From contig OZ076409.1 of NCBI GenBank assembly GCA_964187785.1, positions 6,450,001 to 6,514,000 on the forward strand: a stretch of DNA of 64,000 nt, given 5' to 3'. The translations under genes were made by a program, and so were the position numbers. Source of the stretch: Amphiscolops sp. MND2022 (lineage: Eukaryota). The notes beneath the pieces are model-generated. The model saw only the letters and a list, made by a program, of their open reading frames with translations. It was not told where the DNA came from and ran no database searches. Of the stretch, positions 21,436 through 40,795 are shown piece after piece. The stretch's first letter is position 1. The number at the start of each line of letters is the position of its first letter.

Positions 21436-22143
21436 TAACGTCCACCTGTCAATACCAAATTTTCGTTGAAAAATTCGTTCAAGAACCAAAAAAGGTGCGA
21501 ATCAAAATGGCCGACCTGGCAGGTCCTTAAAGCCCATAAAAAAAAGAGAGAGAGAACGCGTGAACGAGAAGAAGGACAGAAGAAGAAAAAGAAGTAGACG
21601 ACTGACGATATGAAGATCCATGGGATAGAATTCAAAGAACGCTACCCGGTGCTGTGTCCTCCCTGGGAAAGCAGAGCCATTCCAGAACAACATAATTGGA
21701 TCCCCGAGAACCCACAAACAGTAACTCTATTTCCACTCGGGGCTTATCCCCTTTATTTTGTTAATTTATGTTAATGTATTTTGCTATTTTTCCCGTGCCT
21801 GACCTTCTAGGTCGGCATTTCGTGCCCATAACTGTTGAAATGACAATTTTCGGATAAACACTTTTTTGGACCTCGGAAGTATGTGGGGGATAGCAGGAAC
21901 GCGCTAAAACCTTAGGATACGTTTTTACAGGCTTGTGGGGCGTGTCCGGACTTTGAGAGTGCCGGCGCGTTGCCTCGGAGCTCTAATTAGAGGAGTCTCC
22001 TTAGACGTTAGAAAAGTCCCCCATGGAGACCATTTTGGGATGAAAAACTAGTGTCTAGGTATGTAGTAAGACAACGGTCTCCTGTTTAAGCATCCTAGGC
22101 ATTGTCCCTCTTCCTAGATGTGCGTCGCTAGCCGGACGTTACA
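21436..22143 (+). repeat. 5' LTR (lacks terminal TG)
   Basis: Matches 39821-40529 apart from poly-A run length; starts TAACGTCC. Confidence 0.95.
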
Positions 22144-22159
22144 TCTGGAATAGTTTTTA

Positions 22160-22176
22160 TGGCGACCACAGAGGGA
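22160..22176 (+). promoter_or_regulatory. Putative primer-binding site (tRNA-Arg-like)
   Basis: TGGCGACCACAGAGGGA resembles the complement of a tRNA-Arg(TCG) 3' end (TGGCGACCACGAAGGGAC); lies 16 nt from the LTR end. Confidence 0.55.
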
Positions 22177-25139
22177 TATTTTTCCTTACCGCGTCCTGCG
22201 AGGAGCAACTCCTGCTTTCCGGCCCTGAAAGGTCCGGATCTAGGAGAAGCTTTTGGAAGAGTCCTAGATTGTTTTTATTGCTTTATTCTAGCCCTTTGGG
22301 CCTCGTATTAGTGTTTTTCCTGCGTTTCCTGCATGTTTCCGAGGTCCCCAGCCCGAAAAAGACAGTTTGAAACAGTGTACCCCCTTGTACCTTATCTGTA
22401 CTCATTAAAAAAGCTATTCCGGCTTATCCGGAACGTGTTTCAACGGGTTTTCCAGCTTCTTTTCAGCTAATTAGCAATGTACAGGGACTGTGAGGACGGT
22501 TGGTGAAGACCCGAACTAGCTGAGTGGAGGGCTGCAGGTGCTTCACGTCATAGCCTCTTCCTCCCCACTTGATGCCAATTCACCGAAGATAGCTGGGTTA
22601 TTTCGTTCCCCTTACGTTTTCTAGCCCCAAATCAGTGTTCCCAGGCCTATTTTTGCATAAATTAACTGTGAATGATACCCACAGGGTATTTGCATCAGTT
22701 ATTTTAAAGACTTGAGCTCGAAAACGCCAAAAATAACACTAATAACAGCTCAAATATCGAATTTTCCCGTTTTGAAAGCCAAAATTTCATAAAACTGTTT
22801 ACGGCCAGAGGGAATACCTGAAAAACGTTCTATCGGAGCTACCAGGTCGAGAACAAATAATTTTGTTGGGCTGTTTTTCTAGAAAACCTGAAAATTTCAG
22901 CAATTTTTGTTCAAAAATAGGCAAAATTGGCCATTTTGACCAATTTTGACGAGGGCGAAGCCTTGGGCGTTTGTTCCCAAGCCTCTTGAAAGGCCCAAAA
23001 TTTTTGTTGTTGTGCTTGGTAGTACGCAATACTACTGCCAAGACGGTTTTTGAACACCCCCAATATAAATTGAAGTCTTAACACCACTTTTCTTTCATTA
23101 AAATAGACCTGAGTAGAGGACCCCATAGACCTGAGAGCTATAACATCAAAAATAATAATTGAAAGAACCCCACTCCCCTAAATAAAGCAGTTACACCTTC
23201 CTACTGTACTGTTAAAACCATCTTTAACCTCTGGGAACCGAAGAATAAAAAGTTCCTAGGGAAAATACGTGTTTTTCATAGGTGTTCCCAGAGTGTCCAA
23301 GGTGTAACCTAAAACCAATTTTGAGAGACCCTAGCTGGAACCTGCCAGGTTTCGCTCGCTTATTCTCTATTAGTAGAGAGTACTAGATTACTAACGCTGA
23401 AAACCGCGAGTGATTCCAACCAGTGGTTACCGAGAAATAGCCAAAAACGTGTTATTTTTGTGACATTTTCGGAACACTAGAGTAGTGCTTCCAGCACAGG
23501 TCGAAATCTCTCCTAGCAGGAGTAGCCCAAAACGGATTGCACCATCGTGTAGACCATAAAAAGTTACGTTAGTGGTGTAATTTTCATAGCGCTACCATTA
23601 CTAGTGATTGAGAAATCTTAGCCGCAGTTTTGCTCAAAAATGATCCGAAAATGTCGAAAAAATTGAATTTTAGTTGAGCATAGTGCTACACCTTGCAGGT
23701 ATCCCAGCACTAAAATTCTTGCATTTTCGTATTTACGGCGCTAGATCCCGACGATTTGTGCATTTTGAGCAGCTTGCTACTGTCCAACTTGGAGAAATTG
23801 ACAATTTTGTGAGTTTTAGCCCCTGAAAGTGACATACAGGGTACATCATAGTTTTGTCGACTCGGATTGCGAAATATTGACCTGGGCACCCTGCTAACTT
23901 ATTTTTCTGTTACGTGGGCGTAATTCACGCTCGCATACGAAATTTCAGATAGCTAGGACGCCTAGAAGGCGAGTTTGACCACTTTTTGCGAAATTCGCGA
24001 CATAGCCAATTTCTCAGTGAACATTGTTAAGTGGCCGCGACACACGCAGAATCAATTTTGACGCAATCGGAAGCTCATTCCCCACGATTCAGCTAGTGTA
24101 CTAGACGGTGTGAAATTTTCAGGTCGCTAGCACCACTAGAAGTGATTTTCACCTTCCCCGGAGATGCTACTTGATGAGAAAAACGAGATTTTGAGAAAAA
24201 ATTAATAGAAAACCCGAGCATTCCCAATCCCGACACACCCCATTCAGGGCTGGAGTCATCTGTTTAACGCATTGAGCAAGTCCCACACGCCTTACCGAAC
24301 CTATAAAATCCATATAAAGTTAGCCCCAAAATCAACGATCTTCCACTAAACCCTCCACGAGATCAAAAGAAGGTAAACTCCAAAATTCGAAATTCGTTTC
24401 TTCCCCGCCGCTAAGGTCGCCTAGGTGCAATCTACTCGCCATAACCACCTCAAACCTACGCCTCGCATACCCTGAGGGTACAAGAGTGCGCCTGAGAATA
24501 TCAAAACAATCACAAACCAGGTTTACGAAACGCGCAGAGAAACTAGAACAAGCACAGGGAAGATCACTCGCATCATTGTAACCCCTTCACCCACGACCCA
24601 TAAAGCCATAAACCAGGTCATCACTCGATACTCAACCCACACGTTCCCAATCAAATCCCAGATCATTTCCAGTCCATTGTCCACCCATTGTCCCCGAATC
24701 AGCCCACCCATTGTTCTCAGCCTCCTCACAAAAAAAAAAAAAAAAATTAAAAAAAAAAAAATTTTTTTTGAAGAAAGTCGAACCTTCTAGGTGAGGAGAA
24801 AGTAGAGGAAATTTTAGTTAACCAAACCAGCGATAGTGTACTTAGTGCACTCCACGAATGTAGAAAGCAGTACACGCCCATTTAGCAAACCTTTACCCCA
24901 ATACGAGAAAAACGAGTGATAGGGCGCGCTAAACGGCCTAATCAGTCAGCTATTCAGTGCAGCTTAGATAACAGCCTTTTGAGTTATTTAGTAGAAGCAA
25001 ACCCTCCTAGTTCCACCATCTGCCATTTGTCTTGTGGGGGGAAGGAAGTAGAAAAAAGCCAAAAAAAAAATATATATATATATATAAAAAATTTTTGTTA
25101 TCTTTAATTTTGTCAACTAAAATATTACATTTCGTGGCC

Positions 25140-28100
25140 ATGGGACGACGCGAGACTAACGCCATCATTAGCGACTTCCATGCCACCAACCCTTTCGGAA
25201 GAAGAACGGAAACCACAACCGAACAAAACGAATGTAGATTAGATTCAGCCATAGCAGCCGTAATTTCAGAAGCTATGTCTGACTTCGTACCGAGCCAGGA
25301 ACAAAACGCGGAAATAGCCGCTGCCAATACCCAGCCTAACTCCTCGCGAGCCTCCCCCGATAGCACCAATCTACCGGATGATGCTGAGAACAACACGCAA
25401 AGAGACACACGGCCTCCGCTGGAAGTCACTGACTACAGCTTGGAAAACTGGCCAAACTCCAACCAAGGGCCCATCAGTGAGCTCAGCATTGTTGATACCC
25501 CCAACGAACAAAATGACACTCCAATGACTCCGCGGGCGGACTCAAGGATGGCACAAGTCGAAAGGAACCCCCTGGGTTCCCAGGAGATGATCAATAGCAT
25601 AGGCGGGAATCCCTTCCGAAGCGGATATGCGCTATCGGAAGCACCGGCCAAAACGTCGAACGGGCCAGCGGAAAACTCGAAGACGAACATAACAGAGAAT
25701 CCGTTAAGATATGTTTTTCGAACGCCACCCTCGGTGACACCAAAAATCAACTATGCGAATGCGAGTCGAACGTCTCACACACCAGACTCTCAAGCTAGCG
25801 CCGACACTAATCTCGACTCAACAATAACCAAAGCGAGAAAGGAAATGCAAACGGTTCGAGAAGACTTTCAGAGTAGTCTGGCACAGTTAGCTCAAGTCCA
25901 GACGAGGCTGGCGAGAGAAAACAACGAACATGAGATGCGCGCCGACATGATAATGAGGGACATGGACGAGCTACGAAAAGGTCTGTTGGAAATGCAAGCG
26001 GAAGGGCGACAAAATCAAGGTCGACTGGAAGCGTCAATGGCATCTCTCAATGATCTGATTAAACAGAGAGAAACTACAGCGGACGCTCGCATGGCCGAGA
26101 TGTCTGCAATAATGAGAGAAAGGGACCGCCAAGCAGATGAGCGCATGAAAGCAATGACTAACACGATGCAGCGTCGCGACATAGACTCCAATGTCCGCAT
26201 GGCGGACTTGATGATGGCAATGCAAGATCTGACATTGGGAGTGAAAGCAATCGTGTCGCAAACCCCCGCACAGCAAGCACAAACGGCGCCGCGGATTCCC
26301 CAAAAATATCAACAGACCGAAATACCATCTACAAGCGAAGCTCCCCAACCTCATTATAGAACGGTGGCACAACACACAGCAGAGCCTCCAAGGCCTCCAA
26401 AACTAATGCCACCCGCAACGTACAGGCGTGACCTGTCTAAAGCTAGCAAGATGGCTAAAGTGACCCACACGGAATCACGAGACGCAGGTACGGACCCAAT
26501 GACTGACCCGCCGTCGCTCGACCAATACGCTCGCGGAACGTCGACCTCCGACGATTTTCATTCCGCCGCCGACGAGACGAACGCCCGCAGGACCAGCTAC
26601 TATACGGCCGATTCAAGCGCAGCATTCCGCCCACCTGCGCGAACACAAACGTTCAGAGACTTCGTTCCGCGGCCAGTGGCCACCAGTACGCAGCGTAAAA
26701 TAACAAACAAGCGGAATTTAGAACAAGGCAAAGGCGAACACAGCGACATCGAAGAAATGCCCTCAATAGCAGAAGAGACTCCAGACACGCCGAGAACTAC
26801 CCAACGACAAGCACTAGCGGAAGCAATATCTACGGCCATGTCTAAAGGCTTAGAGCCGTTGCTCGCCGCCAAGGAATCCAAAAACAAGCCCACGAAATAT
26901 AGAGGAACCCGAGACGGAAACGCAGATGGATGGATGATGTTAATGAAACGCCATTTGGAAAAAGCACACCCTAAGGCAACCCCCCTCGATAAGGCGTGGA
27001 CAATAATCGAGTATCTAGAGCATGAAGCCAGGGATTACATCACGAATAAGTCCGAAGCAGAGAGGGACACTGACGAAAAAGTATTCGCATTGTTAGCGCG
27101 TCGCTTCGGGACAGGTTCCAGCAAAATCCATATCCAACAGCAATTTAGAACCCGCAACCAGAATAGCGAAGAAGACTACATGCAGTACCTTGATGCCCTC
27201 GAAGGCCTGCGTAGCCAAGGTTACCCCAATGAAGAGGTGACAGTTCGTCGATACGAAATCATGCAAAGATTCATTGAGGGAGTGCGCAACTTCGAACTAA
27301 AAAGAAACCTCGCGCTAATGTATGCACCGGAACAATACGTGGAAACCCCGCCAACTGTGGAAGCCCTCCGCTTCACAGTGCAACAATACTTACGCATGCG
27401 CGGCTCAACCCGTTCGGACAACTACCCAATGATGCCTCCCCCACAACAACAAGCCAATATCCAACAACCAAATCAGTCCCCAGTAGCACCCGCGCCTGCC
27501 CAAAAAGTGCTACAACAACAGCCTCCTCAACCAGCAGCATACCAACAACAACCAATGCCACCGGCAGCCTATCGACCGCAACCCCAAAGAGCGTGCTTCA
27601 ACTGCGGAGACCCATCGCATTTTGTGGTAGACTGCCCCCTGAAAGACCGTGCACGGAAGCCAGTACAACAGCAAGTGAACTCCTGTCACACGAACCCGAC
27701 GGGTAGTTGGATGTGCCCCTCCCAGCCACACGGCTTAAACTATGATGTGTTCCCAGCATCCCTACCAACCCAAGGCACAGTTGCCTTTTGCATTAATTGC
27801 GGCCGTACTGAACACTCGGCGTCAGAATGCATGGCCTCGGAGCAGATGGGTCACGAAGAACAAATCCGTGCAGCTTGGTATGCTCCTTCACCAAGTCAAT
27901 TCGATGGCCTGAGCCAAGACGACCAAGTCCGGGTAATATCAGTAGCGGAAGACGGAGGTCCCTCCCGACCTGTAGTAGTCACTTGTGGCGAGAAACAAGT
28001 ACTCACCACACTAGAGGCACCCGCCCCAGATTGCACAGAGACACTTATCTCGATACACTTGCTACTCTCGGCCGAACAGAAAACGCGACCCACGCTGACG

Positions 28101-31100
28101 CTCTCGCAACTAAAGGAGGAATTATGCAGAAACGTGAAGTATACCATCGCAGCGCGACCGCTCCCACATTTTGCGCGAGAAGACGAAACGAAACTGGCCC
28201 CAATACAGAAAGTTAAAACCGTTTCTCCGGTGCCGGTAGCCATTAACGTAGACGGTGTAGACATGAAATTTGATGCTATTGTAGTCTTAGAAGGCCACTT
28301 CCCTCAGGGATTGTATTTGGGCCGCCAGGAGTTACGATGTTATAACATCGGAGTGCAAGATGCCCAGGGGGAGGCTCGTATTGACGAACGGGCATCCCTG
28401 GTGGTTGCCTTTGGCAACACTATCCAGGAACCAATACCCTTGTACGGGATGATAGACACCGGTTCCGGTGTCTCCATTCTCTCCCTCAAAGCCTATCAAA
28501 AAATTGCATCACCTCACGCCTTGAGCCTCCTGCCGTATGACATCCAACTGTATGCCGCCAATGGTAAAACCATCAACACCATTGGAATCGCCGAAAATGT
28601 TAGCTTCCAGTTGGGCGGATATACCCTCCGAACCAATTTCATAGTCATTGCCGATCACCTAGGCGCGGAAGACTTCCTACTTGGCAGAAACTTCTTGCGC
28701 ACCTACAACGTTCTCGTGGACTTGACGGCCATGAGGGTCACTATACGAGACCCCAAAGCGCCACGCCACTTCAAACCCGTCCATGAGGTAAGTAATGATG
28801 AGCCATCCCTAGTGATATCCACCGAAAAAGTAGTTCTAGGCCCCTATGAGCGTAAGCTAGTACGAGCCCAAATTATTTCTCAAAAGCACAACGAGTACCT
28901 TTTCCGAAACGTAATGATTCGCCCCCAGGGGATATCTAAACGATCCCCCTATGTTTCAGAAGATACATTGACGTCTGTTGGAGATGAAGGCATTGTCTTC
29001 ATAGCCCTACGAAACACTACCCCCTCAGAAAACGTAACTATTCAAACCAAAACTGTCCTCGGTAAGGCAGAACCTACAAAATTTGTGTTGCAACCTGTGG
29101 CTGCCGACACGGCAACCGAAATTGATAAATCTTTGTTTGAACAAGTTAATAAAGTTTATACCGAAGAGTGGTTAAACGAAACGAGTTCAGAGTATAGTTC
29201 TTTTGCTCAAAACTTCTTGTCCTCTACTGAGATGTCTGAAGAAGGATTATCGGAAAGCGAAAAGCGTGCTAAGACTGACCCACAATTGCTAAAACCTATA
29301 CCAGGTCCAGACCTTTCTTCCGTCCTTTCTTCGTGGGGGGAGGGAGCGAGAGATCAACTAGCAAGCGTTCTGAGTGAGTACGATGACCTTTTTATGAAAC
29401 ATAAAGCCGACATAGGGAGGTGCAAAATAGCAAAACACCGCATAGAACTAGAGCCGGAAGCTATCCCGCACAGAGAAGGCGCTCGGCGCATGTCCCCGGA
29501 TAAGGCAGCAAAGGCTAATCAAGAGGTACGGAATCTACTGGCCCTTGGCCTAATTCAACCCTCCTATTCACCGTGGGCAAGCGGAATAGTCATGGTTAAA
29601 AAGAAAACAGGCGAACTTCGCTTCTGTTGTGACTTTCGACCGCTCAATGACGTAACGGTCAAGGACGCGTTCCCATTGCCCAGGATTGATGAAAGTCTAT
29701 CCCGGATAGGCAATGCGAAAATTTTCACAAGTATTGACCTAGCGTGGGCCTTCTGGCAGATACCGCTAAAGAAGCGCGATAGAAGGAAAACAGCATTTGC
29801 CTGCGAACTGGGATTGTTCGAATGGCGGCGCATGCCCTTTGGGCTATGCAATGCATCGGCCACATTTCAGCGCTCCATTACACGAGCCCTGCAACGAATC
29901 CAGCAGCGACACGGGAGTGTCGTCATGGCTTACATTGACGACATAGTTATCGCCACGGAAACCATAGAAGACCACATCGTACGAATCAAGGAAGTATTCG
30001 AGTGTCTCCGAGAGGCTGGATTCAAGATGCGCGCCGAGAAGTGTGATTTCATGCGCACGGAGACGAAGTACCTGGGGCGAGTGGTATCCTCGGAAGGCAT
30101 CAGACCAGACCCCGAAGCTATAGTTAAAATCCAAGAATGGATGCCCCCGAGAAACAAAGAGGAGCTTCAGAGCTTCCTAGGGTTTGCAAACTATTACAGA
30201 GACTTTGTACCGTTTCATGCAGCCAAAGTGCAACCCCTGCAAGAGTTGCTCAAGAAAAGTCAGCATTTCTACTGGGAAACGAAACACCAAGAAGCCTTCG
30301 ATGCAGTAAAGGAAGCACTAGCAAACGCGACCGCCTTGGCAGCCCCAAATGAAGACGGACGATTCGTGCTCGATACCGATGCTAGCGCAGTAGCGATAGC
30401 TGGAATCCTGCACCAGGAACAAGAACACAATGGGAAGACTATTTTGCGGCCAATAGTCTTCGGGAGCAAATCCCTAACGAAGACACAGCTGAACTATGGA
30501 GCACCCAAGTTGGAAATGTACGCAGTATTTTACTTCATCGAGAAATTCCACTCATATCTCGCAGGCCGAGAGTTCACGCTCCGTGTGGACAATCAGGCCC
30601 TGTCATGGCTTAAAACGTACTCCATGGACCAAGCCATGATAGGTCGCTGGATAGCCCGTCTAGATCAATACAACTTCAAGACGATCCACCGACCTCGCAC
30701 ACAGCATCGAAACGCGGACGGCCTCAGCAAACGAACCAACGACTATGTGCACCGGGAGAAAATCCTCGAGAAGTTACCGGAAGTGAGTGAAGGATTCAAC
30801 TTCATGACCAAAGAAGACTATGAAGCACTCCCCACCGTGCCATACTTTGACAAACACGGACGCCCAATACCAAACCACCCAGAGCTCCCGCCGGAAGCTC
30901 GAGCCCAACTCCCACTGCTGTATATCTTGGGAAAAAGACCCAAAACGAGCTTGCGAGAGCCCCCGGTGAATGGTGCCCCATGGTATCCTCAAATACAATG
31001 GGAGGCGACGCCTACCACAGATGAGGATCACCGACCCACTCACATCCTCAGCATCACGACCAAAGTGCCACCGGCACGCCTAGACACTGAAGAACCTGAT

Positions 31101-34100
31101 CCTGTGCTTGAAAAGATGCCACCCGAATGCCAAACACAAGCCAACGCCCTTAGAACAGTTGGGACAGAGCTGCATGAACACTTTCTGACCAGACGTGGCC
31201 TCAAGGACCTGCACCTAGCACAAAATAGAGATATGCATCTCCTAGCGCTGAAGAAACTCATGAACGGCGAACCATTGGAAGAAACGATGTTCCCCGAAGA
31301 CGTACAAGACTTCGCGCGACGCTACTTCCATCAAAAGAAAGACCTGCTCTTCCTGAACCCAGACGACATTCTCTGCGTCAACTACGTTCCGCAACAACGT
31401 GCGCTGCACGTGCGACCGTGTATGATAGTCATGCCACAACTATACCAGCACGAAATTCTGTATAGGGCACACGACGAATCGGGACATCAGGGCGTAGGGA
31501 AGGTGCTAGCGAGAGTACAAGAACGGCATACCTGGCCGGGCATCAAGCGTGACATAGTCAATCACATCAAGCACTGCTTGACCTGCCAGCAAACAAAACA
31601 CCCCGCCGGGAACCCCTGCTACCCCTTGCAGAACATCAACAGTAGCAATTTCAACGACCTAGTACAATTCGACCACCTCAAACTATGCAAAACCGAATCG
31701 GGAAACACCGGTCTCTTAGTCATGATAGACCACTTCACGAAATTTGCCGAGGCCATTCCGTGTGCCCACGACGAATATGATGCCCAAACCACAGCTAAAA
31801 TCATCCTTAATAAATGGTTTGCCAGGCACGGCACTCCAGCACGGATGCAATCCGACAATGCCACGAATTTCACAGCTGAAATCGCACAGGAGCTAATGAA
31901 AGCCTCGCAAGTCACTAAAGTGACATCCACTCCAGCGCATCCTCGAGGGAATGGACTCGTGGAAAGGCAGAACCGAACGTTACTCACACTGCTGAGAGTC
32001 TACACTTCTCGACGAATGCAGGATTGGGATGAGCATATTGATGGAATCCTCGGTGCGTACAATTCAACTAGACACGCAACCACTGGATTCTCTCCCTATA
32101 TGCTCCAACACGGAGCCAAGAAATCAATTCCCCTGTCATTCATCTACCCAGAATTTGCTGCCCGAGGATTCGATTCCAAAGAAGAATTCGTAGAACATCT
32201 TCTAGCCAGACAGCAAGAAATCCATGAACTCGTCAGAAGAAATACACACCAAGCACAGCTACGGCAGAAGCTGAAGTTTGACCGCCACCTGAAGGCCAAA
32301 GCGCATGCTGTAGGCGATGCGGTGTGGGTGTTCTGCCATATCATACCCAAGGGTGGCACCCGCAAGCTGATTCGCGCATGGCGCGGACCCCACAAGGTAA
32401 CCGACGTGTTGCAGGACGGACGATTATACGTACTAGACACTGGCCAAAAGGTCCACTACGAAAGATTGAAAAAGCATGTGCCTGCCCCTTGGGACTGGGC
32501 CGCACACCAGCCCTTTGGGCCGAATCAAAACGTAGCCATTATTGCTGATCCGTACGTAGAAGAAAGCAATGAAGAGATAGCGTCCGACATCTCCCAAGAC
32601 TCTTTCCTACCGGAACAACTCCCGGAAGCATCCTTCGAAATGGAGCCGACAGGATCGATTCCACCTCGTAGCATTCAGACTCGTACTCAAACGGCACTCG
32701 AACGAGGAATACCCCGGAGAAGATTCAGCCACTTCGGGTGCCCCTCTAACTCAGATTCCGAAAGAGAGGAAAATGAGCCGCCGATTCAGAGCCCACCACC
32801 GCCAGTAGTGTTCCCCGACTTAGACGACCTGGAACCACTGTACTCCGACCAGGAGGAAATTCAGCCAGCCGTACCTACGAGTCTGGTACCATCACCCTCA
32901 GGGACCTCAGCCCCCCTACTATCCAATCCGTCCCTAACAGACACCCTGAGTAACTTTCCCTTGTTTGGCCCCCAATTAGAGAACCTGATCGACCCGATAG
33001 AAAATAAACCAAAGTCAGAAACTGAGAATGAAGAAGAGACAACCCATCGCAGTCCAAGCCATTGCTCAACACAACCCGATACCACGAATCGTAGAGGACG
33101 GCCTCGAGGCCGACCACCAGGTAGAGGAAAACCCCGCGCTATACCATCTACTAGAACCACGACATCGTCGCGAACCCAAACCGCACGATCCAGAAGAGGC
33201 CCCAGGGCAAGAATGAGTACTCGTGCACCCCCTCGAAAACTAGACCGAGCGATGACTCTACCAGAAATACCCGAAAGCCAACAACCACCAGATGTCCAGG
33301 ACTCAGAACCAAGGCCACTATCGCGAACATCACGATATCAACTGCGAGCTAACAGAACACCACGTTACAAGTGTGGAACCTGTGGTTCCCGCAACTGTAG
33401 TTGCGTCAAGCATCTGACTCGCCATTCACCGGACAACCGATTGGCCCGGGGAGCAGTAGTCCCTGCCAGGGATCTCTTTATGGCTAGGACACATTGTCAC
33501 CCACAACATGAAATCTTAGCCGTGCAAGCCCAACGAGAAAAGGTGGAGACACCCCCGCTAGTGCACCATTTGATCATCACGGTAGAAAAAACTTTCACTA
33601 GTGTGGAACGAGAAGCGATACCACCGCTGGAAGAAACACTCAAAGCAATGCACGCGACATCTCCCTCCGACTGCCCGACTTACCGATTCAAAGAATGGAC
33701 ACCTCCCCATCGGGGCGGTCTAGAATTCACCCTACATGCCATCATACCGCCTTTGCCACCATCGATGACGTTCGGCGAGCTAGCAAAAGAGGATAGTAGC
33801 CCGGAGATGATTCGCTGTATCACTGCACACCAACTGTGGGAGAAATATCACATTGCCTCCCCGCCGGGAGACATATATCAGCCCACCAATGGATGGTGGC
33901 TACTTGTCACCTCTCTAGACGCAACGACATTGGTATCTCCAACAACTTTACTGATGTGCTTAGAAAGCTTACGTACGGTAACCGAACCTGAGAACACGCT
34001 TTGTTTCCACATGGCCGATATTTATCGTGGCAAGTTCCTAAGCCAACATTGGCTACAATTAATAGCGGTCGTCTTCTGCCGACAGGCGAAGATACACTTC

Positions 34101-34808
34101 CTGGATCGACAAGTTTATACACCAGAAAAACCCGTCACAGTTAGTGAAGCACTCTCGATAGTACACGATTGGTCATCTACAAACTTGGGAGATAGACCTC
34201 TACGCCGAACCGTCTGGGAAGACCGAAAAGCTATCTTGCAGCATTTGACACCCCGACCCACCGATGATCAGAGCAGAACCACCGGCAAATGGCTCATAAC
34301 CCAGCCTAAAACCAGACCGAATTACTTACCTTGGATAAGTTATGACGACACAGATATCCTGCAGGCACCTGGCACCGTAATATTATGCTGCCCTGCGGAT
34401 TTGTTCTCTTACTCGGCTACAATCCGTTACGTCATTCGCGAATACGGTCAAGAAAACATATTTCGTCTAAGACCATCAGTTGGCACCGCAATTCGCTTAA
34501 CCCGCTCGCCAACTGCACCCTGGAATAACGAAATCTTCCTTCTATGTACCAGAGCATCGAACAAGCATCCGCTCTTACATGAAGTACTACATGCGTGTTT
34601 GACGAATTTGATAACTCAGCTCCATCGAAACCACATTACCAGAATCCACTTGCCCATCTATGATCCTGAGCGATCGATGAACCTCCTCCCAGCCTGGTAC
34701 GCCACACTACGCGACCACTTTGCAGATCACAACATAACAATAGTTTTGCACGATCGCGTCTATGTCACAATAGCGTCGATTACCTCTGCCAACTTTGGCG
34801 GTAGTTAA
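25140..34808 (+). CDS. Gag-Pol polyprotein (3222 aa from first ATG) with extended C-terminal accessory region
   Basis: Uninterrupted ORF. Coiled coil and capsid-like region; CCHC knuckles 27594-27635 and 27789-27830; protease DTG at 28455; RT YIDD at 29931; RNase H DTDAS ~30372; integrase HxxxxH..CxxC with D,D(35)E (QFDH, SDN, VERQN); GPY/F-like WRGPH; macro-like domains at the C-terminus. Confidence 0.96.
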   Translation: MGRRETNAIISDFHATNPFGRRTETTTEQNECRLDSAIAAVISEAMSDFVPSQEQNAEIAAANTQPNSSRASPDSTNLPDDAENNTQRDTRPPLEVTDYSLENWPNSNQGPISELSIVDTPNEQNDTPMTPRADSRMAQVERNPLGSQEMINSIGGNPFRSGYALSEAPAKTSNGPAENSKTNITENPLRYVFRTPPSVTPKINYANASRTSHTPDSQASADTNLDSTITKARKEMQTVREDFQSSLAQLAQVQTRLARENNEHEMRADMIMRDMDELRKGLLEMQAEGRQNQGRLEASMASLNDLIKQRETTADARMAEMSAIMRERDRQADERMKAMTNTMQRRDIDSNVRMADLMMAMQDLTLGVKAIVSQTPAQQAQTAPRIPQKYQQTEIPSTSEAPQPHYRTVAQHTAEPPRPPKLMPPATYRRDLSKASKMAKVTHTESRDAGTDPMTDPPSLDQYARGTSTSDDFHSAADETNARRTSYYTADSSAAFRPPARTQTFRDFVPRPVATSTQRKITNKRNLEQGKGEHSDIEEMPSIAEETPDTPRTTQRQALAEAISTAMSKGLEPLLAAKESKNKPTKYRGTRDGNADGWMMLMKRHLEKAHPKATPLDKAWTIIEYLEHEARDYITNKSEAERDTDEKVFALLARRFGTGSSKIHIQQQFRTRNQNSEEDYMQYLDALEGLRSQGYPNEEVTVRRYEIMQRFIEGVRNFELKRNLALMYAPEQYVETPPTVEALRFTVQQYLRMRGSTRSDNYPMMPPPQQQANIQQPNQSPVAPAPAQKVLQQQPPQPAAYQQQPMPPAAYRPQPQRACFNCGDPSHFVVDCPLKDRARKPVQQQVNSCHTNPTGSWMCPSQPHGLNYDVFPASLPTQGTVAFCINCGRTEHSASECMASEQMGHEEQIRAAWYAPSPSQFDGLSQDDQVRVISVAEDGGPSRPVVVTCGEKQVLTTLEAPAPDCTETLISIHLLLSAEQKTRPTLTLSQLKEELCRNVKYTIAARPLPHFAREDETKLAPIQKVKTVSPVPVAINVDGVDMKFDAIVVLEGHFPQGLYLGRQELRCYNIGVQDAQGEARIDERASLVVAFGNTIQEPIPLYGMIDTGSGVSILSLKAYQKIASPHALSLLPYDIQLYAANGKTINTIGIAENVSFQLGGYTLRTNFIVIADHLGAEDFLLGRNFLRTYNVLVDLTAMRVTIRDPKAPRHFKPVHEVSNDEPSLVISTEKVVLGPYERKLVRAQIISQKHNEYLFRNVMIRPQGISKRSPYVSEDTLTSVGDEGIVFIALRNTTPSENVTIQTKTVLGKAEPTKFVLQPVAADTATEIDKSLFEQVNKVYTEEWLNETSSEYSSFAQNFLSSTEMSEEGLSESEKRAKTDPQLLKPIPGPDLSSVLSSWGEGARDQLASVLSEYDDLFMKHKADIGRCKIAKHRIELEPEAIPHREGARRMSPDKAAKANQEVRNLLALGLIQPSYSPWASGIVMVKKKTGELRFCCDFRPLNDVTVKDAFPLPRIDESLSRIGNAKIFTSIDLAWAFWQIPLKKRDRRKTAFACELGLFEWRRMPFGLCNASATFQRSITRALQRIQQRHGSVVMAYIDDIVIATETIEDHIVRIKEVFECLREAGFKMRAEKCDFMRTETKYLGRVVSSEGIRPDPEAIVKIQEWMPPRNKEELQSFLGFANYYRDFVPFHAAKVQPLQELLKKSQHFYWETKHQEAFDAVKEALANATALAAPNEDGRFVLDTDASAVAIAGILHQEQEHNGKTILRPIVFGSKSLTKTQLNYGAPKLEMYAVFYFIEKFHSYLAGREFTLRVDNQALSWLKTYSMDQAMIGRWIARLDQYNFKTIHRPRTQHRNADGLSKRTNDYVHREKILEKLPEVSEGFNFMTKEDYEALPTVPYFDKHGRPIPNHPELPPEARAQLPLLYILGKRPKTSLREPPVNGAPWYPQIQWEATPTTDEDHRPTHILSITTKVPPARLDTEEPDPVLEKMPPECQTQANALRTVGTELHEHFLTRRGLKDLHLAQNRDMHLLALKKLMNGEPLEETMFPEDVQDFARRYFHQKKDLLFLNPDDILCVNYVPQQRALHVRPCMIVMPQLYQHEILYRAHDESGHQGVGKVLARVQERHTWPGIKRDIVNHIKHCLTCQQTKHPAGNPCYPLQNINSSNFNDLVQFDHLKLCKTESGNTGLLVMIDHFTKFAEAIPCAHDEYDAQTTAKIILNKWFARHGTPARMQSDNATNFTAEIAQELMKASQVTKVTSTPAHPRGNGLVERQNRTLLTLLRVYTSRRMQDWDEHIDGILGAYNSTRHATTGFSPYMLQHGAKKSIPLSFIYPEFAARGFDSKEEFVEHLLARQQEIHELVRRNTHQAQLRQKLKFDRHLKAKAHAVGDAVWVFCHIIPKGGTRKLIRAWRGPHKVTDVLQDGRLYVLDTGQKVHYERLKKHVPAPWDWAAHQPFGPNQNVAIIADPYVEESNEEIASDISQDSFLPEQLPEASFEMEPTGSIPPRSIQTRTQTALERGIPRRRFSHFGCPSNSDSEREENEPPIQSPPPPVVFPDLDDLEPLYSDQEEIQPAVPTSLVPSPSGTSAPLLSNPSLTDTLSNFPLFGPQLENLIDPIENKPKSETENEEETTHRSPSHCSTQPDTTNRRGRPRGRPPGRGKPRAIPSTRTTTSSRTQTARSRRGPRARMSTRAPPRKLDRAMTLPEIPESQQPPDVQDSEPRPLSRTSRYQLRANRTPRYKCGTCGSRNCSCVKHLTRHSPDNRLARGAVVPARDLFMARTHCHPQHEILAVQAQREKVETPPLVHHLIITVEKTFTSVEREAIPPLEETLKAMHATSPSDCPTYRFKEWTPPHRGGLEFTLHAIIPPLPPSMTFGELAKEDSSPEMIRCITAHQLWEKYHIASPPGDIYQPTNGWWLLVTSLDATTLVSPTTLLMCLESLRTVTEPENTLCFHMADIYRGKFLSQHWLQLIAVVFCRQAKIHFLDRQVYTPEKPVTVSEALSIVHDWSSTNLGDRPLRRTVWEDRKAILQHLTPRPTDDQSRTTGKWLITQPKTRPNYLPWISYDDTDILQAPGTVILCCPADLFSYSATIRYVIREYGQENIFRLRPSVGTAIRLTRSPTAPWNNEIFLLCTRASNKHPLLHEVLHACLTNLITQLHRNHITRIHLPIYDPERSMNLLPAWYATLRDHFADHNITIVLHDRVYVTIASITSANFGGS

Positions 34809-35138
34809 GGGCATGACTCGCCCTCTACTTGGCATATCAGGCCACTGGCCTTTTGCACTGCCTTTAGTTAATTCGAAGCACTTTAAAATTTTAACAAAGC
34901 CGCGCCGACAAGCGCAAATTTTAGTACTAACCACTGTAACTTTTTAACCTTATGTTTGTGTGCTCGTCCTAAAAAGCTTAACTGCCCACCCGTCTATGTG
35001 ATGTCTTATCTCCAACTGTAACCTGTTTTTCAGTTTTGTCCTGTTGCCTCGCCTCTGCGCGGCCCCCATACTTATCACGCCAAATCAGTCTTGCCATCAC
35101 AATCTTCGGTGCTAAACATTCCTTTATCATCGTTTCCA

Positions 35139-38100
35139 ATGGACCCATCTGCGCGACACCGCCTGCCTGCACCCCAGAACGCTGCGCGTGCCCAACCATC
35201 CACTAGGAACGACCCACCTCCAATGATGAGCGAAATAGATGGTCGAGTCGACCAGCTAGCTCTTATCCAAGACACCCTACTAAACGGAGCGACACCCACA
35301 ATGATCACTGGCTTTGCCATGATCATCGCCCAAACCCAAGCTCAAGCAGAGTACCCTGATGTTAGCTTCACTATCACTAGCCGAGTCGGCCCGATAGAAC
35401 GCTCCGCCACTTTTCGCGACGGCACCTGGCAAGGGTATGACTTGACCCACAGCCTCATAGACCCTCGCTCTCACGTAGTCTATGGAGAACCTACCAGGCC
35501 TCCCATGGACCAAGAACGATCACTCCGTATTTCACAGTCAGCACTACAGACATTACAGACGCAAGCTACGACCCCGTTGCCCTCACCGCACCCGGTGCAG
35601 TTCAGCTGCACGTTGCCAATCGTGCCACCCCCAGTACTAACACCGCCCATGCCCCTGGCATCGGAAGGCATTCGCCTACTGACCACCCCATCCTCTACCT
35701 TCATGCCTCCATCTACCTTTCAGGGGGGAGGGGTGCAAGTAGACAATACAGCAAGTGCTACCCTAAGCGAAGAACAGCCCAGGAGAACGGTGACGTTCAA
35801 AGATTCATATGAAGAATTAACTCAGACGTCTTCCAGAACCGAATCTCAAGTCTCGGAACCTCCACAAGCCTCAGAACCAGCTAGCCTAGTAGGCTTCCAA
35901 ATGGACCCACAATTCCGAGAACGTCAGCGAGAACAACAAAAAGCCGAAAGTAAGGCAGCCAACACTGTGGTAGACCTCCGGGAGAAAATAAAAGCTGGAA
36001 AGCGAGCCAGAGAGGCGACCATGCAAAGTAAACAATCGAGCTCGACCAGTGTCCCGCAACCCTTGTCTGCCTCACCCACGCAACCAGAAACAAGGAGACC
36101 GAGAATAACACACGAACTCCTAACACATTCGGAAAAACGGCAGCTGGATATCACTGCACGCGACGCACTGCGTCTGCAGCGGGAAATACCAACCACAACG
36201 CCACCAGAACACCCCCTACGACAGAAATTCGAGACCGCAACGGGAACTGGGGACTTCGCCACAAGGCAGAAAATAGAAAAAGCCACAGTGGGAGTACTCT
36301 ACAATCGTCCCGTCAAGAAACCAGTGTTCACTCAAGATGGATGCCCCCCATGGTTCAATCGCATGCGAGCAGAATTGGAGAGAGTAAACTCGACATACAT
36401 GCGTATTCCTGACAGCTTCCTCCGACAGCGCCCTGGCCGCTTCGACGAAGATCGCTTGCGAACAAAAAACTATGCGAGGGACCCCATTACAATCCTGCCC
36501 ATGGGAAAGGACCTCTTGCAGAAAACCAGAATAGCCCTCTTCGTCGACTCGACGATGAAGTCTTCATTCAATTCCCACAACACCCTCATGGATGTCAGAA
36601 TAATGAACATGCCCTGTACAACACTGAACGAAATGGCAGAAGTGACCGACAAAGTATTCACCCAAGCGGGAACAGAGACCATCCCATTACCTCCGTTGCT
36701 GGTATATTCAAACGTGATAGATCACCTCGCTCTGCGAGGGACCTTGGAATTTTTCCGACCAGACCACGAAAGATTTACTGAGGGGTTCGTCACCGACGAA
36801 GTGACCAACTACGTGGAGACAATGGCGAATATTGTCCAAACTATGCGCAGAAGGAAAGCTGTCACTGGAACGGTATTTATGTCGCCTCCAGGCTACATGC
36901 ACCTTCCTCGGACCCTTCAGCAATTCTTATACCTAGTAATGGAGGCAGCGTACGCAAGAGATCTGGCTTTTTACATTGTGACCCCCAATCTACGCATCAG
37001 CAATAATAGCTGGCGCCCTTGTGAAGCCTCTTACCCAGCCTTCATTGCTGAAGTCTCAAAGGCCCTTCAATCATACGTCGGTTACCGTGGAAACTCCCAA
37101 ATGGTAGTGGATGAAGCAACAGCATTCGACTACGGGATGGAAATGGCTCGCCGATCATTGAATGAGCGTGGAGACAGAATTGTAAACGACCCAAATGAAA
37201 GTGAGCGCAATAACCTGGTGGATAACCTCTGGTTTGAACGCCGGGACGAGTCAACTATAGACGAAAAAACACATGAACCCAAGTTTCACAAGGAACTCAC
37301 AAAGCTAATGAAAGAAACCGAGACGGTTCAGGGTGATAGAAAGAATTCCTCCATCTTCCCCATGGCTCAAATATCATTGGATGCTGAACCTGGGCAAAGA
37401 TCACCCACATTGGCCATGCTGTTGATACTGGCTCAAGACATTGTACAAAAGAATATTCAAGAGCCGACACACACGTACCAAACATGGCACGATCAACTAC
37501 GAGAACCTTTGGGCCAAGTCGCGGACCGACTGGGCATAACATTTCCCGTATTTCTCCACAACATCTCTCCCTTCTGGCTTCCTTCCTTAGTACAAGCCGA
37601 GTACGGCCTGGATGAGCAGCGAATGCGACTTTACATGGAGGCCATGGAAAGAGCGACCGTTAGTGAGCTACTAGCGTACCTAATGGCCGTGGGGTTAACC
37701 ATGATGTACAGAGGACCATCGGCCCTCATACAAAAGTTCGTGCTCAACAAGGGAGGCTCAGCCCTGTTCAGCTTCCTAGTCTTCTCGCAGAATCAAAGAG
37801 GTTGGATATCTGCGCTCATTGAAACCCTGGACCCAGCGGGTTCCCTGAAATTAAAGACACAGCTGGACTTAAACATTCAAGCACTTCTAGTGTGGATTTA
37901 TTCCACCTGGGTCAATGTCTTGGGCGTTATGCATCCTCTGGATGAGTGCCCAGCCATTAACCGAGACCCCAATCAACTTCCTGGGTTCCTGTTCCCTACA
38001 CAAGTTGCAACATTAATGCTCGTAGAAACAGAGGACCTAATACCCCTCATTGCTCCGATAGTATGGCCCATCTTCGGCGCAGTTATGGCCCTGCGCTATC

Positions 38101-39233
38101 CAACGCAAACCCTGCGAGTGGCAGCAGTGAGTCCTTCCCTCTCGATTCTACATTTCGTGACCTCTGATGGGCCCCTTCAGGGTCCCACCTATCAGTCAGT
38201 AATACACAGCTTTGCCAACTTGCGACCTCCCATGGCGTATACCGTAATCAAAGACCGCCAACAAGTGGAACACAACTATCTCACCTTGATTAAGGCGAGA
38301 GCACGTAGCTCGCTCCCTTTGCCGATGGAAATCCATCCTGTAGTTTGGCTGCACACCCCTATTGATCCAAATAATGGAGCAGTGGCGACATTTGAAGGGT
38401 GGGACGTGCCAGTTGTCCTGCGTATCTTGAGAACAATTATCCAAAGATTGGGTGGTCGTCGAAAAGGAGAAGAACCTACTAGGTTATTGTATCCCTATGC
38501 GTGTGACACTTCCAGAATATATTGTGCGAGGACAGAACCCCGTGAGCATACCGCCAGAATCTTGAATACCATTACATGTTGGGCCCAGCCGGAGCTCGTG
38601 GATCTCGCTATACACCAGACCTTCCAACAGCTGCCGACAACTATTCCGACAGTAGCAAAGGAACCAAGCAAGAAAGATTTGCCAGTGAACACTGACGTTC
38701 CCAGCAACCCGCGTATGGCACTAGAGATATTCGTGCGTCTGCATGGTCTCCAACGAGAACGTACTCGAGCCGTGGGCGAAGAGTACGCTAGGGGAATACG
38801 AACGTTCAGGCAGCTGTTCATCCAATATGGCCATCAAGAATTAGCGGACGGTTTGCCGAACTTGGAATCAGTCGAAGCTATCCCGGGAATTAGCGATTTG
38901 AGCGAAGCTGCCTCTGGCAGCTCTCGCACCGTCTTCCCCACACCCCACGTGAGTCAAGACTCCAATGAAATATTGGTGGAAAGAGCACAAGATGATGTGC
39001 CAGGCGTCATGCCACCATCAGGGGAACCTATGACTGGTAATAACTTCACGTTCTCTGACGCCACCACTCCTGTAAGAGATGAAGTGGAAACCAACATCTC
39101 GAACTTGGAGGCAGCGGACATAGAGTCAGAGCTCAATAATCTGCTGACAATAGACGAAGAGTATCAGAACACGGTGGATGCCATGGGCAACACCTCAGTC
39201 CAAGAAGCCCCACAGGATCAACTGCTGGAATAA
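35139..39233 (+). CDS. ORF2 accessory protein (1364 aa from first ATG) with SGNH/GDSL-hydrolase-like domain; not Env-like
   Basis: Intact ORF inside the LTRs; ALFVDS (36531-36551) / MPCTTLNEM / LVYSNVID / TVFMSPPG / WRPCEASY..FIAEV spaced like SGNH blocks I-V; no N-terminal signal peptide. Confidence 0.85.
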   Translation: MDPSARHRLPAPQNAARAQPSTRNDPPPMMSEIDGRVDQLALIQDTLLNGATPTMITGFAMIIAQTQAQAEYPDVSFTITSRVGPIERSATFRDGTWQGYDLTHSLIDPRSHVVYGEPTRPPMDQERSLRISQSALQTLQTQATTPLPSPHPVQFSCTLPIVPPPVLTPPMPLASEGIRLLTTPSSTFMPPSTFQGGGVQVDNTASATLSEEQPRRTVTFKDSYEELTQTSSRTESQVSEPPQASEPASLVGFQMDPQFRERQREQQKAESKAANTVVDLREKIKAGKRAREATMQSKQSSSTSVPQPLSASPTQPETRRPRITHELLTHSEKRQLDITARDALRLQREIPTTTPPEHPLRQKFETATGTGDFATRQKIEKATVGVLYNRPVKKPVFTQDGCPPWFNRMRAELERVNSTYMRIPDSFLRQRPGRFDEDRLRTKNYARDPITILPMGKDLLQKTRIALFVDSTMKSSFNSHNTLMDVRIMNMPCTTLNEMAEVTDKVFTQAGTETIPLPPLLVYSNVIDHLALRGTLEFFRPDHERFTEGFVTDEVTNYVETMANIVQTMRRRKAVTGTVFMSPPGYMHLPRTLQQFLYLVMEAAYARDLAFYIVTPNLRISNNSWRPCEASYPAFIAEVSKALQSYVGYRGNSQMVVDEATAFDYGMEMARRSLNERGDRIVNDPNESERNNLVDNLWFERRDESTIDEKTHEPKFHKELTKLMKETETVQGDRKNSSIFPMAQISLDAEPGQRSPTLAMLLILAQDIVQKNIQEPTHTYQTWHDQLREPLGQVADRLGITFPVFLHNISPFWLPSLVQAEYGLDEQRMRLYMEAMERATVSELLAYLMAVGLTMMYRGPSALIQKFVLNKGGSALFSFLVFSQNQRGWISALIETLDPAGSLKLKTQLDLNIQALLVWIYSTWVNVLGVMHPLDECPAINRDPNQLPGFLFPTQVATLMLVETEDLIPLIAPIVWPIFGAVMALRYPTQTLRVAAVSPSLSILHFVTSDGPLQGPTYQSVIHSFANLRPPMAYTVIKDRQQVEHNYLTLIKARARSSLPLPMEIHPVVWLHTPIDPNNGAVATFEGWDVPVVLRILRTIIQRLGGRRKGEEPTRLLYPYACDTSRIYCARTEPREHTARILNTITCWAQPELVDLAIHQTFQQLPTTIPTVAKEPSKKDLPVNTDVPSNPRMALEIFVRLHGLQRERTRAVGEEYARGIRTFRQLFIQYGHQELADGLPNLESVEAIPGISDLSEAASGSSRTVFPTPHVSQDSNEILVERAQDDVPGVMPPSGEPMTGNNFTFSDATTPVRDEVETNISNLEAADIESELNNLLTIDEEYQNTVDAMGNTSVQEAPQDQLLE

Positions 39234-39810: not shown

Positions 39811-39818
39811 GGGGAGGA
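39811..39818 (+). promoter_or_regulatory. Polypurine tract
   Basis: GGGGAGGA directly abutting TGTAAC of the 3' LTR. Confidence 0.8.
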
Positions 39819-40529
39819 TGTAACGTCCACCTGTCAATACCAAATTTTCGTTGAAAAATTCGTTCAAGAACCAAAAAAGGTGCGAATCAAAATGGCCGAC
39901 CTGGCAGGTCCTTAAAGCCCATAAAAAAAAAGAGAGAGAGAACGCGTGAACGAGAAGAAGGACAGAAGAAGAAAAAGAAGTAGACGACTGACGATATGAA
40001 GATCCATGGGATAGAATTCAAAGAACGCTACCCGGTGCTGTGTCCTCCCTGGGAAAGCAGAGCCATTCCAGAACAACATAATTGGATCCCCGAGAACCCA
40101 CAAACAGTAACTCTATTTCCACTCGGGGCTTATCCCCTTTATTTTGTTAATTTATGTTAATGTATTTTGCTATTTTTCCCGTGCCTGACCTTCTAGGTCG
40201 GCATTTCGTGCCCATAACTGTTGAAATGACAATTTTCGGATAAACACTTTTTTGGACCTCGGAAGTATGTGGGGGATAGCAGGAACGCGCTAAAACCTTA
40301 GGATACGTTTTTACAGGCTTGTGGGGCGTGTCCGGACTTTGAGAGTGCCGGCGCGTTGCCTCGGAGCTCTAATTAGAGGAGTCTCCTTAGACGTTAGAAA
40401 AGTCCCCCATGGAGACCATTTTGGGATGAAAAACTAGTGTCTAGGTATGTAGTAAGACAACGGTCTCCTGTTTAAGCATCCTAGGCATTGTCCCTCTTCC
40501 TAGATGTGCGTCGCTAGCCGGACGTTACA
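39819..40529 (+). repeat. 3' LTR (711 bp)
   Basis: TGTAACGTCC...GGACGTTACA. Confidence 0.97.
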
Positions 40530-40795
40530 TATGGACAGTTTTTGCAAAAATCAAAAAAGTCGAAAAATGGCTGTTTTTTGGCCATTTTTGGGTTAATTTC
40601 GGCTATGTTTCTCACATCCCAGCCATACGATTTCGATGACATTGCACATATAGGACTCTAATATGGTGTAGAATGACTGTGGAAAATTTCGTTCGAATCG
40701 TATGGACAGTTTTTGAGAAATTTGAAATTTTCATGAAAAAGTCGGGAGAAAAAAACGAAACGATTGGATATGTAGTCGAAATTTTTTTTTCGAAA
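40530..40795. repeat. Host interspersed repeat interrupted by the giant Gypsy (left part ~21285-21420)
   Basis: TTGCACA.ATAGGAC....TATGGTGTAGAA.TGACTGT.GAAA occurs at both 21372-21420 and 40642-40688; TATGGACAGTTTTTG occurs at 40530 and 40701. Confidence 0.6.

Follow-up and report, generated by a model that had tools for sequence, protein, structure and literature searches.

Extra genes of long terminal repeat (LTR) retrotransposons show how retrovirus-like elements gain abilities. To our knowledge the characterised ones are few, namely Env captures, dUTPase, the GDSL and DEDDy ORF3s of rotifer elements and CERV of Cer1. Here we describe the second open reading frame (ORF2) of a giant Ty3/Gypsy element, located in a 64,000-nucleotide stretch of DNA from Amphiscolops sp. 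MND2022 (assembly GCA_964187785.1, contig OZ076409.1, positions 6,450,001-6,514,000, plus strand); this whole stretch is called the window, and all coordinates below are those of the window. The closest described systems, as the cited parts of the reports present them, come from bdelloid rotifers, where the Vesta LTR retrotransposons carry a GDSL ORF3 downstream of pol with intact catalytic residues and the Athena-L retroelements (Athena/Terminon) carry GDSL derivatives without catalytic residues (Rodriguez, Kenefick & Arkhipova 2017, PMC5408684); the roles that their authors consider for these rotifer ORFs are penetration of membranes and auxiliary functions (PMC5408684, PMC6431247). A lipid or membrane role without RNA binding is proposed, in the passages cited, for the esterase of ORF1p of the long interspersed nuclear element (LINE) ZfL2-1 (4c1b; PMC3905857), and the OSK domain of Drosophila Oskar is presented as resembling SGNH domains, lacking enzymatic activity and binding RNA (PMC4754038). 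Among invertebrate Ty3/Gypsy elements, Cer1 of Caenorhabditis elegans is described as encoding CERV, an accessory protein other than Env that is translated from a spliced mRNA and on which the cycle of the element and the export of its genomic RNA depend (PMC10309623).

The element in the window is 19.1 kb long, and its LTRs, primer-binding site, polypurine tract and the order gag(CCHC)-protease-reverse transcriptase-RNase H-integrase are all present. ORF2 occupies the env slot, between the gag-pol ORF and the polypurine tract. Its frame is open from stop to stop from position 35022, has an ATG at 35139 and continues uninterrupted to the stop codon at 39231-39233. A preliminary description of this DNA had reported a fully open 4.1-kb frame between pol and the polypurine tract of an element with near-identical LTRs, and this is what we found (1364 codons; two 723-bp LTRs with 99.448% identity, 2 mismatches and 2 gap openings over 724 columns in blastn of the flanks). 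ORF2 and its segments, with lengths in amino acids (aa), are listed below.

35139..39233, plus strand: ORF2, 1364 aa and stop, ~153 kDa, isoelectric point (pI) 5.7
35172..35531, plus strand: conserved N-terminal segment, ORF2 aa 12-131, with ~36% identity in the most diverged in-genome lineage (tblastn, alignment)
35532..36125, plus strand: Pro/Ser/Thr-rich region, ORF2 aa 132-329, probably disordered, with a conserved KRAR patch at aa 288-291
36126..36512, plus strand: basic region of pI 10.1, ORF2 aa 330-458, modelled with low confidence
36513..37088, plus strand: core with predicted SGNH fold, ORF2 aa 459-650 (structure model, VIA-align, motifs)
37089..37397, plus strand: acidic stretch with NLWFERRDESTIDEKTHEPKFHKEL, ORF2 aa 651-753 (family alignment)
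37398..37910, plus strand: predicted all-helical domain, ORF2 aa 754-924, confidently modelled and without a PDB match
37911..38918, plus strand: conserved, poorly modelled region, ORF2 aa 925-1260, which holds the hydrophobic segment 967-985
38919..39230, plus strand: acidic tail of pI 4.1, ORF2 aa 1261-1364, with the conserved motif AADIE-x-ELN

The Pro/Ser/Thr-rich N-terminal third, the central motif block and the acidic tail that had been noted from the sequence were all recovered by composition and motif positions. In each 100-aa block of the first 400 residues Pro, Ser and Thr together account for 26-41%, the motifs FVDST (468-472), NMPCT (490-494), YSNVIDH (523-529), SPPGY (582-586) and SWRPCE (624-629) follow each other in the middle of the protein, and the final 64 aa contain 15 Asp or Glu residues versus 1 Lys or Arg. 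Among the relatives in this genome the acidic stretch at aa 651-753 is the most conserved part, most of the invariant alignment columns falling at aa 625-755; it is not conserved in P0165, a relative from another assembly. The last helices of the basic region fall inside the structural alignments to platelet-activating factor (PAF) acetylhydrolase.

The 1.07-Gb assembly yielded 5089 first-look candidates for copies of ORF2, 34 of which were scored. All 34 had 98-100% protein identity and 33 were free of internal stops. Proteins of the public collection with 89%, 56% and 34% identity to ORF2 proved to be encoded by multi-copy sister lineages in the same genome. In these lineages stop-free rows amounted to 21 of 34 for P0004 and 17 of 33 for P0009, the open frames of P0071 reach ~1430 aa, and several lineages that diverged deeply have intact frames of ~1360-1430 aa. 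The plan of the element in the window recurs in a complete copy of subfamily D (729-bp LTRs 98.9% identical, ~19.1 kb, long leader, gag-pol, ORF2), and in a lineage of ~30% protein identity the conserved pol C-terminus lies ~300 nt upstream of the ORF2 N-terminal segment, the order of pol C-terminus, spacer and ORF2 being kept in both. The cluster of P0108 and P0165 is not encoded in this genome, where its best match is 30% identical. Alignment of P0165 (1187 aa) with ORF2 extended over 676 aa with 26% identity (E-value 1e-51), and since P0165 comes from another assembly the ORF2 family exists in at least one assembly besides this one. Relatives in viral and metagenome contigs were pattern matches, none of which was confirmed.

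Two checks named in the preliminary description, a survey of family members and a comparison of nonsynonymous and synonymous substitution rates (dN/dS) among copies, thus gave an ORF2 that is intact in sister lineages and evolves under purifying selection. When the window copy was compared with 11 copies of the same subfamily by the Nei-Gojobori method, dN/dS was 0.07-0.18 in ten comparisons and 0.73 in the eleventh, a copy with only 10 differing sites; the loci used here were the best protein matches, so that dN is biased downward in these values. Comparison with two subfamily-B copies gave a dN/dS of 0.09 at a dS of 0.76-0.79 (1363 codons), a value little affected by this bias. The ratio was 0.04-0.15 across all seven segments into which ORF2 was divided for this comparison, with the minimum (0.04-0.05) in the SGNH core and a low value also in the linker after it. 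ORF2 is a real accessory gene kept by purifying selection in a young, highly amplified giant Ty3/Gypsy lineage. In its host the family has been very successful: first-look matches number in the thousands, nearly identical copies with an intact frame are numerous, and several of the lineages are deep. Because a protein of 153 kDa is held under strong constraint, ORF2 must matter for propagation of the element.

An SGNH fold had been proposed for the central block, and sequence methods gave no sign of it. Pfam returned no match for ORF2 at E-values up to 0.1 and neither GDSL/SGNH nor any consistent family for 35 members at E-values up to 10, and sequence and profile searches of the PDB with ORF2 gave no match (one at E 0.78). 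From an alignment of 35 rows, AlphaFold2 (AF2) produced a model of aa 330-760 with a mean predicted local distance difference test (pLDDT) score of 63.8. Within its core (aa ~459-684) the means of 10-residue blocks were 69-95 (model residues 131-350, equal to aa ~460-679), and strands, at model residues 136-140, 157-161, 191-195, 248-252 and 281-283, alternate with helices. A Foldseek search of the PDB with this core gave no match at E <=0.001; SGNH/GDSL esterases made up most of the top rows (E 0.003-0.1, probability up to 1.0), and the ZfL2-1 LINE ORF1p esterase (4c1b_B) stood at rank 11 with E 0.031. In the viral library BFVD, phage SGNH proteins led the Foldseek matches, with weak E-values. 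VIA-align was run against 48,161 representative chains, and all of the best 50 matches listed (50/50) were of SGNH/GDSL type, headed by PAF-acetylhydrolase (1bwp_A; Z 11.3, root-mean-square deviation 3.4, 177 residues aligned) and a GDSL-like lipase (3p94_A; Z 11.3). When the Foldseek candidates were aligned with VIA-align, the best Z was 11.4-11.6, and sialate O-acetylesterases had a Z of 10.4. Five entries of PAF-acetylhydrolase Ib alpha (1bwp, 1bwq, 1es9, 1vyh and 1fxw) had a Z of 11.1-11.4, with deviations of 3.3-3.7 over 176-185 aligned residues. Since the background stated for VIA-align with non-helical models is a typical best Z of 7-8, and since the list of matches is homogeneous, we accept, on the strength of the model, that ORF2 aa ~459-650 (perhaps from ~380) adopts an SGNH fold whose nearest relative is PAF-acetylhydrolase Ib alpha. 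The structure search suggested earlier therefore agreed with the proposal for aa ~455-650, and it left the C-terminal half without a match.

Canonical SGNH ORFs also occur in the same genome; they are multi-copy, lack introns, measure ~200-340 aa, match Pfam PF13472 (Lipase_GDSL_2; loci L026-L031 and L034-L045) and fall into at least seven sequence types. Aligned with one another, they show invariant Ser, Gly, Asn, Asp and His, in blocks reading GDS or GSS, G, GxND or DGTN, and DxxH. They are probably the esterase-type ORF1 of LINEs. With these ORFs alongside ORF2, the genome holds both canonical and degenerate SGNH domains of retroelements.

The residues of the catalytic blocks were compared by alignment in four in-genome lineages and several fragments, and pairwise in P0165. 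Block I, which follows the first strand, reads (V/M/A)-D-S-(T/S) (aa 469-472), and almost every member with coverage of this site conserves it, P0165 included; Ser471 is kept and the Gly of GDS is replaced. The Gly position of the block II oxyanion hole is Cys493 in ORF2 and Leu, His or Cys in the other in-genome lineages, the Gly being retained only in P0165 (MPGS). In block III, (S/A/C)-N-x-x-D, Asn525 is invariant in the genome and kept in P0165, and Asp528 follows; the adjoining His529 does not vary within this genome, but P0165 has Asp and P0075 has Tyr in its place. Block V, the loop before the C-terminal helix where Asp-x-x-His is expected, reads N-S-W-R-P in ORF2 and (W/L/Y)-R-P in all relatives, of which one comes from another assembly. 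Arg626 is found in every member, and no member has a His or an Asp at the expected positions. The earlier observation of a kept block I Ser together with SWRP in block V thus holds throughout the family. Since the Asp-His pair is lost, the domain cannot hydrolyse esters by the canonical triad. The absence of Asp-His from all relatives, the fixation of Arg at the position of the His and the strongest constraint on Ser, Asn and the fold favour a binding pocket over a hydrolase.

Set beside the systems described so far, ORF2 is, like Vesta ORF3, an ORF of its own that follows pol, encodes an SGNH/GDSL-type domain and shows no coiled-coil or transmembrane Env features, and it resembles the Athena-L derivatives in the loss of catalytic residues. 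According to the cited part of the rotifer report, Vesta ORF3 keeps invariant Ser, Gly, Asn and His and is recognised by HHpred, whereas ORF2 has lost the Gly, Asp and His and profiles are blind to it. Unlike Vesta ORF3 as described there, the SGNH domain of ORF2 sits in a 1364-aa protein with ~1000 aa of other conserved sequence, a comparison that is one of descriptions only. The esterase-type ORF1p of L2/CR1/RTEX LINEs is likewise a retroelement-encoded SGNH-fold domain, but the ZfL2-1 esterase is active, has the canonical triad and comprises ~170 aa after a coiled coil, and its element is of non-LTR type, with pol downstream of the esterase. The canonical LINE-like SGNH ORFs of the genome itself are not detectably related to ORF2 in sequence. 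PAF-acetylhydrolase, bacterial GDSL acylhydrolases and sialate O-acetylesterases are enzymes of ~200-230 aa with a Ser-Asp-His triad, to which ORF2, without the Asp and His, is 9-14% identical. OSK (5a4a; Z 7.6, 167 residues aligned) shares with ORF2 an SGNH-like fold that has lost its catalytic residues, but it matches much more weakly than the esterases do, and ORF2 has no LOTUS domain (Pfam), keeps the Ser and Asn and has a core of pI 5.4-8.9. CERV, likened to ORF2 by description only, has no SGNH domain reported in the cited text, and its role in genomic RNA export was shown by experiment.

No description of the ORF2 family was found in the full-text literature, a search whose scope excluded subscription journals and Repbase. 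The suggestion that ORF2 represents an undescribed accessory system of retroelements was nonetheless too strong, Vesta ORF3 and Athena-L being precedents, as far as the cited report describes them (PMC5408684). GDSL/SGNH ORFs in the env slot of LTR elements are already in print, and ORF2 is of a rare but not unprecedented kind. ORF2 differs from these precedents in its carrier, a giant Gypsy that is highly amplified and belongs to another animal, in how large the protein is and how it is built, in the replacement of His by Arg throughout the family and in the lack of any sequence-detectable link to known SGNH families. Together with OSK and the ORF1p esterases of LINEs, ORF2 would add a further independent example in which an SGNH fold has come to serve as a module without enzymatic activity, in the setting of retroelements or of the germline.

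The C-terminal half of ORF2 had been called hydrophobic and helical. The helical part of this statement applies to aa ~754-924, which are modelled confidently as helices; strong hydrophobicity is limited to aa 967-985, the only segment above a Kyte-Doolittle mean of 1.6 (mean 2.2). The AF2 model of this half was poor (mean pLDDT 53.9), and the best matches obtained with it (Foldseek against the PDB, E 1.0; VIA-align, Z 4.6) have, for that reason, no bearing on whether its fold is novel. A search of the ESM Atlas with aa 400-1260 returned generic helical proteins only, with scores <=0.89, and was set aside. Segment 967-985 contains three Pro residues and its counterpart in P0165 carries Gly-Glu-Thr and is not hydrophobic; a transmembrane anchor was rejected as the principal explanation because of this counterpart, and the segment is more likely a buried helix. 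As had been noted before, a signal peptide and an Env-type Cys pattern are both absent: the N-terminus MDPSARHRLPAPQNAARAQP is polar with no hydrophobic peak before aa 46 (hydropathy and sequence read), and the 1364 aa include 8 Cys and no CxxC. No furin site R-x-(K/R)-R occurs in ORF2. No credible late-domain motif (PTAP, PPxY or YPxL) was found in Gag or ORF2, PPGY lying inside the SGNH fold. Without signal peptide, furin site or Cys pattern, ORF2 is not Env-like, and its product is predicted to be cytoplasmic or nuclear. The earlier suggestion that it could stand in for Env in targeting or cell-to-cell spread gains no support from these observations.

The pol and ORF2 frames are the same, with four in-frame stops between them, and expression of ORF2 by read-through or frameshifting from pol was rejected because of these stops. 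The 330-nt spacer between pol and ORF2 is poorly conserved between subfamilies except for one element.

35023..35033, plus strand: splice-acceptor-like CTGTTTTTCAG, invariant in alignments of subfamilies A, B and D

It is followed by a short conserved GTCCTGT, and a conserved TAACCA lies ~100 nt upstream. From the acceptor-like element to the ATG of ORF2 there are 105 nt without another ATG. Such an arrangement is consistent with a subgenomic mRNA produced by splicing, the route by which env genes and CERV of Cer1 are expressed, and judging from the sequence ORF2 is probably translated from such an RNA, with the acceptor-like site at 35033/35034. Upstream of gag-pol the element has a long leader.

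22159..25139, plus strand: leader of ~3 kb, without any ATG-started ORF of >=60 aa on the plus strand

An 800-nt block of this leader (23126-23925) has 87-98% nucleotide identity between subfamilies A and D. Elsewhere nucleotide matches between A and D reach ~73% in gag-pol and are confined in ORF2 to patches of 63-67%. The leader had no Rfam match, the element had no relevant tandem repeat and the 800-nt block had no stop-to-stop frame longer than 62 aa. The block may be a cis-acting RNA element or the outcome of recent recombination.

For the function of ORF2 we tentatively favour, at a little short of an even chance, a non-catalytic accessory protein directed to lipids or membranes that assists the particles of the element. 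The SGNH domain would then be a ligand-binding pocket, whose most probable ligand is the head group of an anionic lipid or else an acyl or acetyl ester; with an Arg in it, the pocket would be well suited to an anionic head group. Made from the spliced RNA that would use the acceptor-like site at 35033/35034, the protein would tie the Gag-RNA particles to membranes or otherwise aid a post-translational step of replication, a membrane-linked role modelled on the esterase ORF1p of L2/CR1 LINEs. A lipid or membrane role is preferred because the closest folds, PAF-acetylhydrolases, acylhydrolases and sialate O-acetylesterases, handle acetyl or acyl esters on lipids and sugars, and because the retroelement SGNH domain that has been studied is described, in the cited part of the report, as binding anionic phospholipids and liposomes and not RNA (PMC3905857). 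Several observations weigh against this picture of a selected, non-catalytic SGNH protein made from a spliced RNA. The fold assignment rests on one AF2 model from a 35-row alignment while sequence methods are blind to the SGNH link, and hhalign between the ORF2 domain and the seven canonical SGNH ORFs of the same genome was weak (probability 9.8%, E 0.0033, 147 columns, partly in register), with no match to one canonical ORF compared singly. The catalytic blocks were mapped by motif order and by secondary-structure position in the model rather than by superposition in three dimensions, and the conserved Ser471, Asn525 and Asp528 with the in-genome His529 leave room for a non-canonical active site, a relocated catalytic His being unlikely. 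The larger C-terminal half is without a fold assignment, and the main function of ORF2 may lie there. No canonical 5' splice donor with >=7/9 consensus positions in both subfamilies was conserved in the A/D leader alignment. Finally, there is the downward bias of dN within the subfamily mentioned above.

The dead SGNH domain might instead, together with the basic region that precedes it, bind RNA of the element in the manner of OSK, so that ORF2, comparable to CERV of Cer1 or to retroviral Rev, would control how the unspliced genomic RNA is exported, stabilised or packaged. OSK is indeed among the structural matches and binds RNA, but at rank 50 it stood far below the true esterases; the region at aa 330-458 is basic and the conserved KRAR patch could be a nuclear localisation signal, but the pI of the SGNH core ranges from 5.4 to 8.9 in 11 members, so that this core is not basic in all of them, the whole protein is acidic, and Pfam revealed no known RNA-binding domain in ORF2 or the 35 members. 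The conserved leader block could provide a target in cis, and Cer1, also of Gypsy type, is a precedent: according to the cited report, export of its genomic RNA requires CERV, which is not an Env and is translated from a spliced mRNA (PMC10309623). CERV is not known to be related to ORF2 in sequence. On balance we regard an RNA-directed factor as unlikely though worth serious consideration. That ORF2 is still an enzyme, an acyl or acetyl esterase or transferase acting on lipids or glycans by means of the Ser471/Asn525 oxyanion machinery and a non-canonical base or chemistry assisted by Arg626, appears decidedly unlikely. The block I Ser and block III Asn are conserved throughout the family, including P0165 with its block II Gly, Asp528-His529 is invariant in the lineages of this genome and dN/dS is lowest in this very domain; yet conserved Ser and Asn can be structural, the His is exchanged in P0165 and P0075, the block II Gly has given way to Cys, Leu or His in this genome and block V lacks both His and Asp in every member.

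A factor for counter-defence or another interaction with the host, for example against small-RNA or chromatin silencing, in which the SGNH domain served as a scaffold only and the C-terminal half were active, would suit the faster evolution of ORF2 than of pol between subfamilies A and D, which is typical of host-interface genes, the success of the family and the conservation of 600 C-terminal aa without a known fold. No positive selection was detected, however, dN/dS being <=0.15 in every domain, no domain points to a defence pathway and the idea is purely speculative; we consider it improbable. An unconventional Env or fusogen for cell-to-cell transfer would explain the env-slot position and the conserved hydrophobic segment at aa 967-985, but it is very improbable given the missing signal peptide, furin site and CxxC, the low number of Cys, the three Pro residues and the Gly-Glu-Thr counterpart of that segment, and the absence of any fusogen among the fold matches, the model of the C-terminal half being poor. 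A neutrally decaying fragment of a captured host gene or a chance ORF, for which nothing speaks beyond the lack of database annotation, is contradicted by the dN/dS of 0.09 at a dS of 0.79, by the values of the single domains and by the intact frames in deeply diverged lineages, and is hardly credible. A bolder reading is that ORF2 founds a new class of accessory protein, a large, non-glycoprotein, non-catalytic factor on an SGNH scaffold that gives an Env-less giant Gypsy a route of membrane trafficking or capsid transfer (e.g. from soma to germline), or another replication step without retroviral counterpart, and whose C-terminal half of ~600 aa is an unseen fold; we hold this to be decidedly unlikely.

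The remaining features of the carrier element are as follows.

21436..22158, plus strand: 5' LTR (blastn of flanks, sequence read)
22160..22176, plus strand: sequence resembling a primer-binding site, TGGCGACCACAGAGGGA, adjoining the 5' LTR, with its position kept in subfamily D (sequence read)
25140..34808, plus strand: gag-pol ORF, 3222/3258 aa, 3222 from the ATG
39811..39818, plus strand: polypurine tract GGGGAGGA, abutting the 3' LTR (sequence read)
39821..40543, plus strand: 3' LTR (blastn of flanks)

The LTR carries a perfect 10-bp terminal inverted motif, TGTAACGTCC...GGACGTTACA, which ends at 22143 in the 5' LTR, and the sequence resembling a primer-binding site starts with TGGCGACCAC... 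at 22160 (sequence read). The first two bases of the 5' LTR copy are AA and not TG (21434-21436). About 15 nt past the inverted motif are alike downstream of both LTRs (22144-22158 and 40530-40543), so the 3' boundary of the LTR is ambiguous (22143 or 22158) and no target-site duplication can be called. Pfam placed zf-CCHC, aspartic protease, reverse transcriptase, RNase H and integrase in this order in gag-pol. The N-terminal region of Gag is unusually long, with ~850 aa ahead of the single CCHC knuckle (25140-27690) that include low-complexity and Gln/Pro-rich stretches. At the other end, pol runs ~900 aa past the integrase (32074-34805) without a Pfam or PDB sequence match; a profile search of the PDB with this extension was empty, and an Atlas lead to a Macro domain was weak (rank 21, score 0.88). 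The last ~150-320 aa of pol are kept, with 69% identity in subfamily D and 39-45% in the lineage of ~30% identity, and in the subfamily D copy examined the C-terminal part of pol sits in a separate, overlapping frame. That the window belongs to an animal genome is shown by a Metazoa_SRP RNA gene of full length at 58554-58854 on the minus strand (177 bits, E 1.3e-46). Downstream of the element there are two direct repeat families with 94-95% identity, ~3261 nt apart (46476-46739 and 49738-50000), possibly the LTRs of a second element of smaller size.

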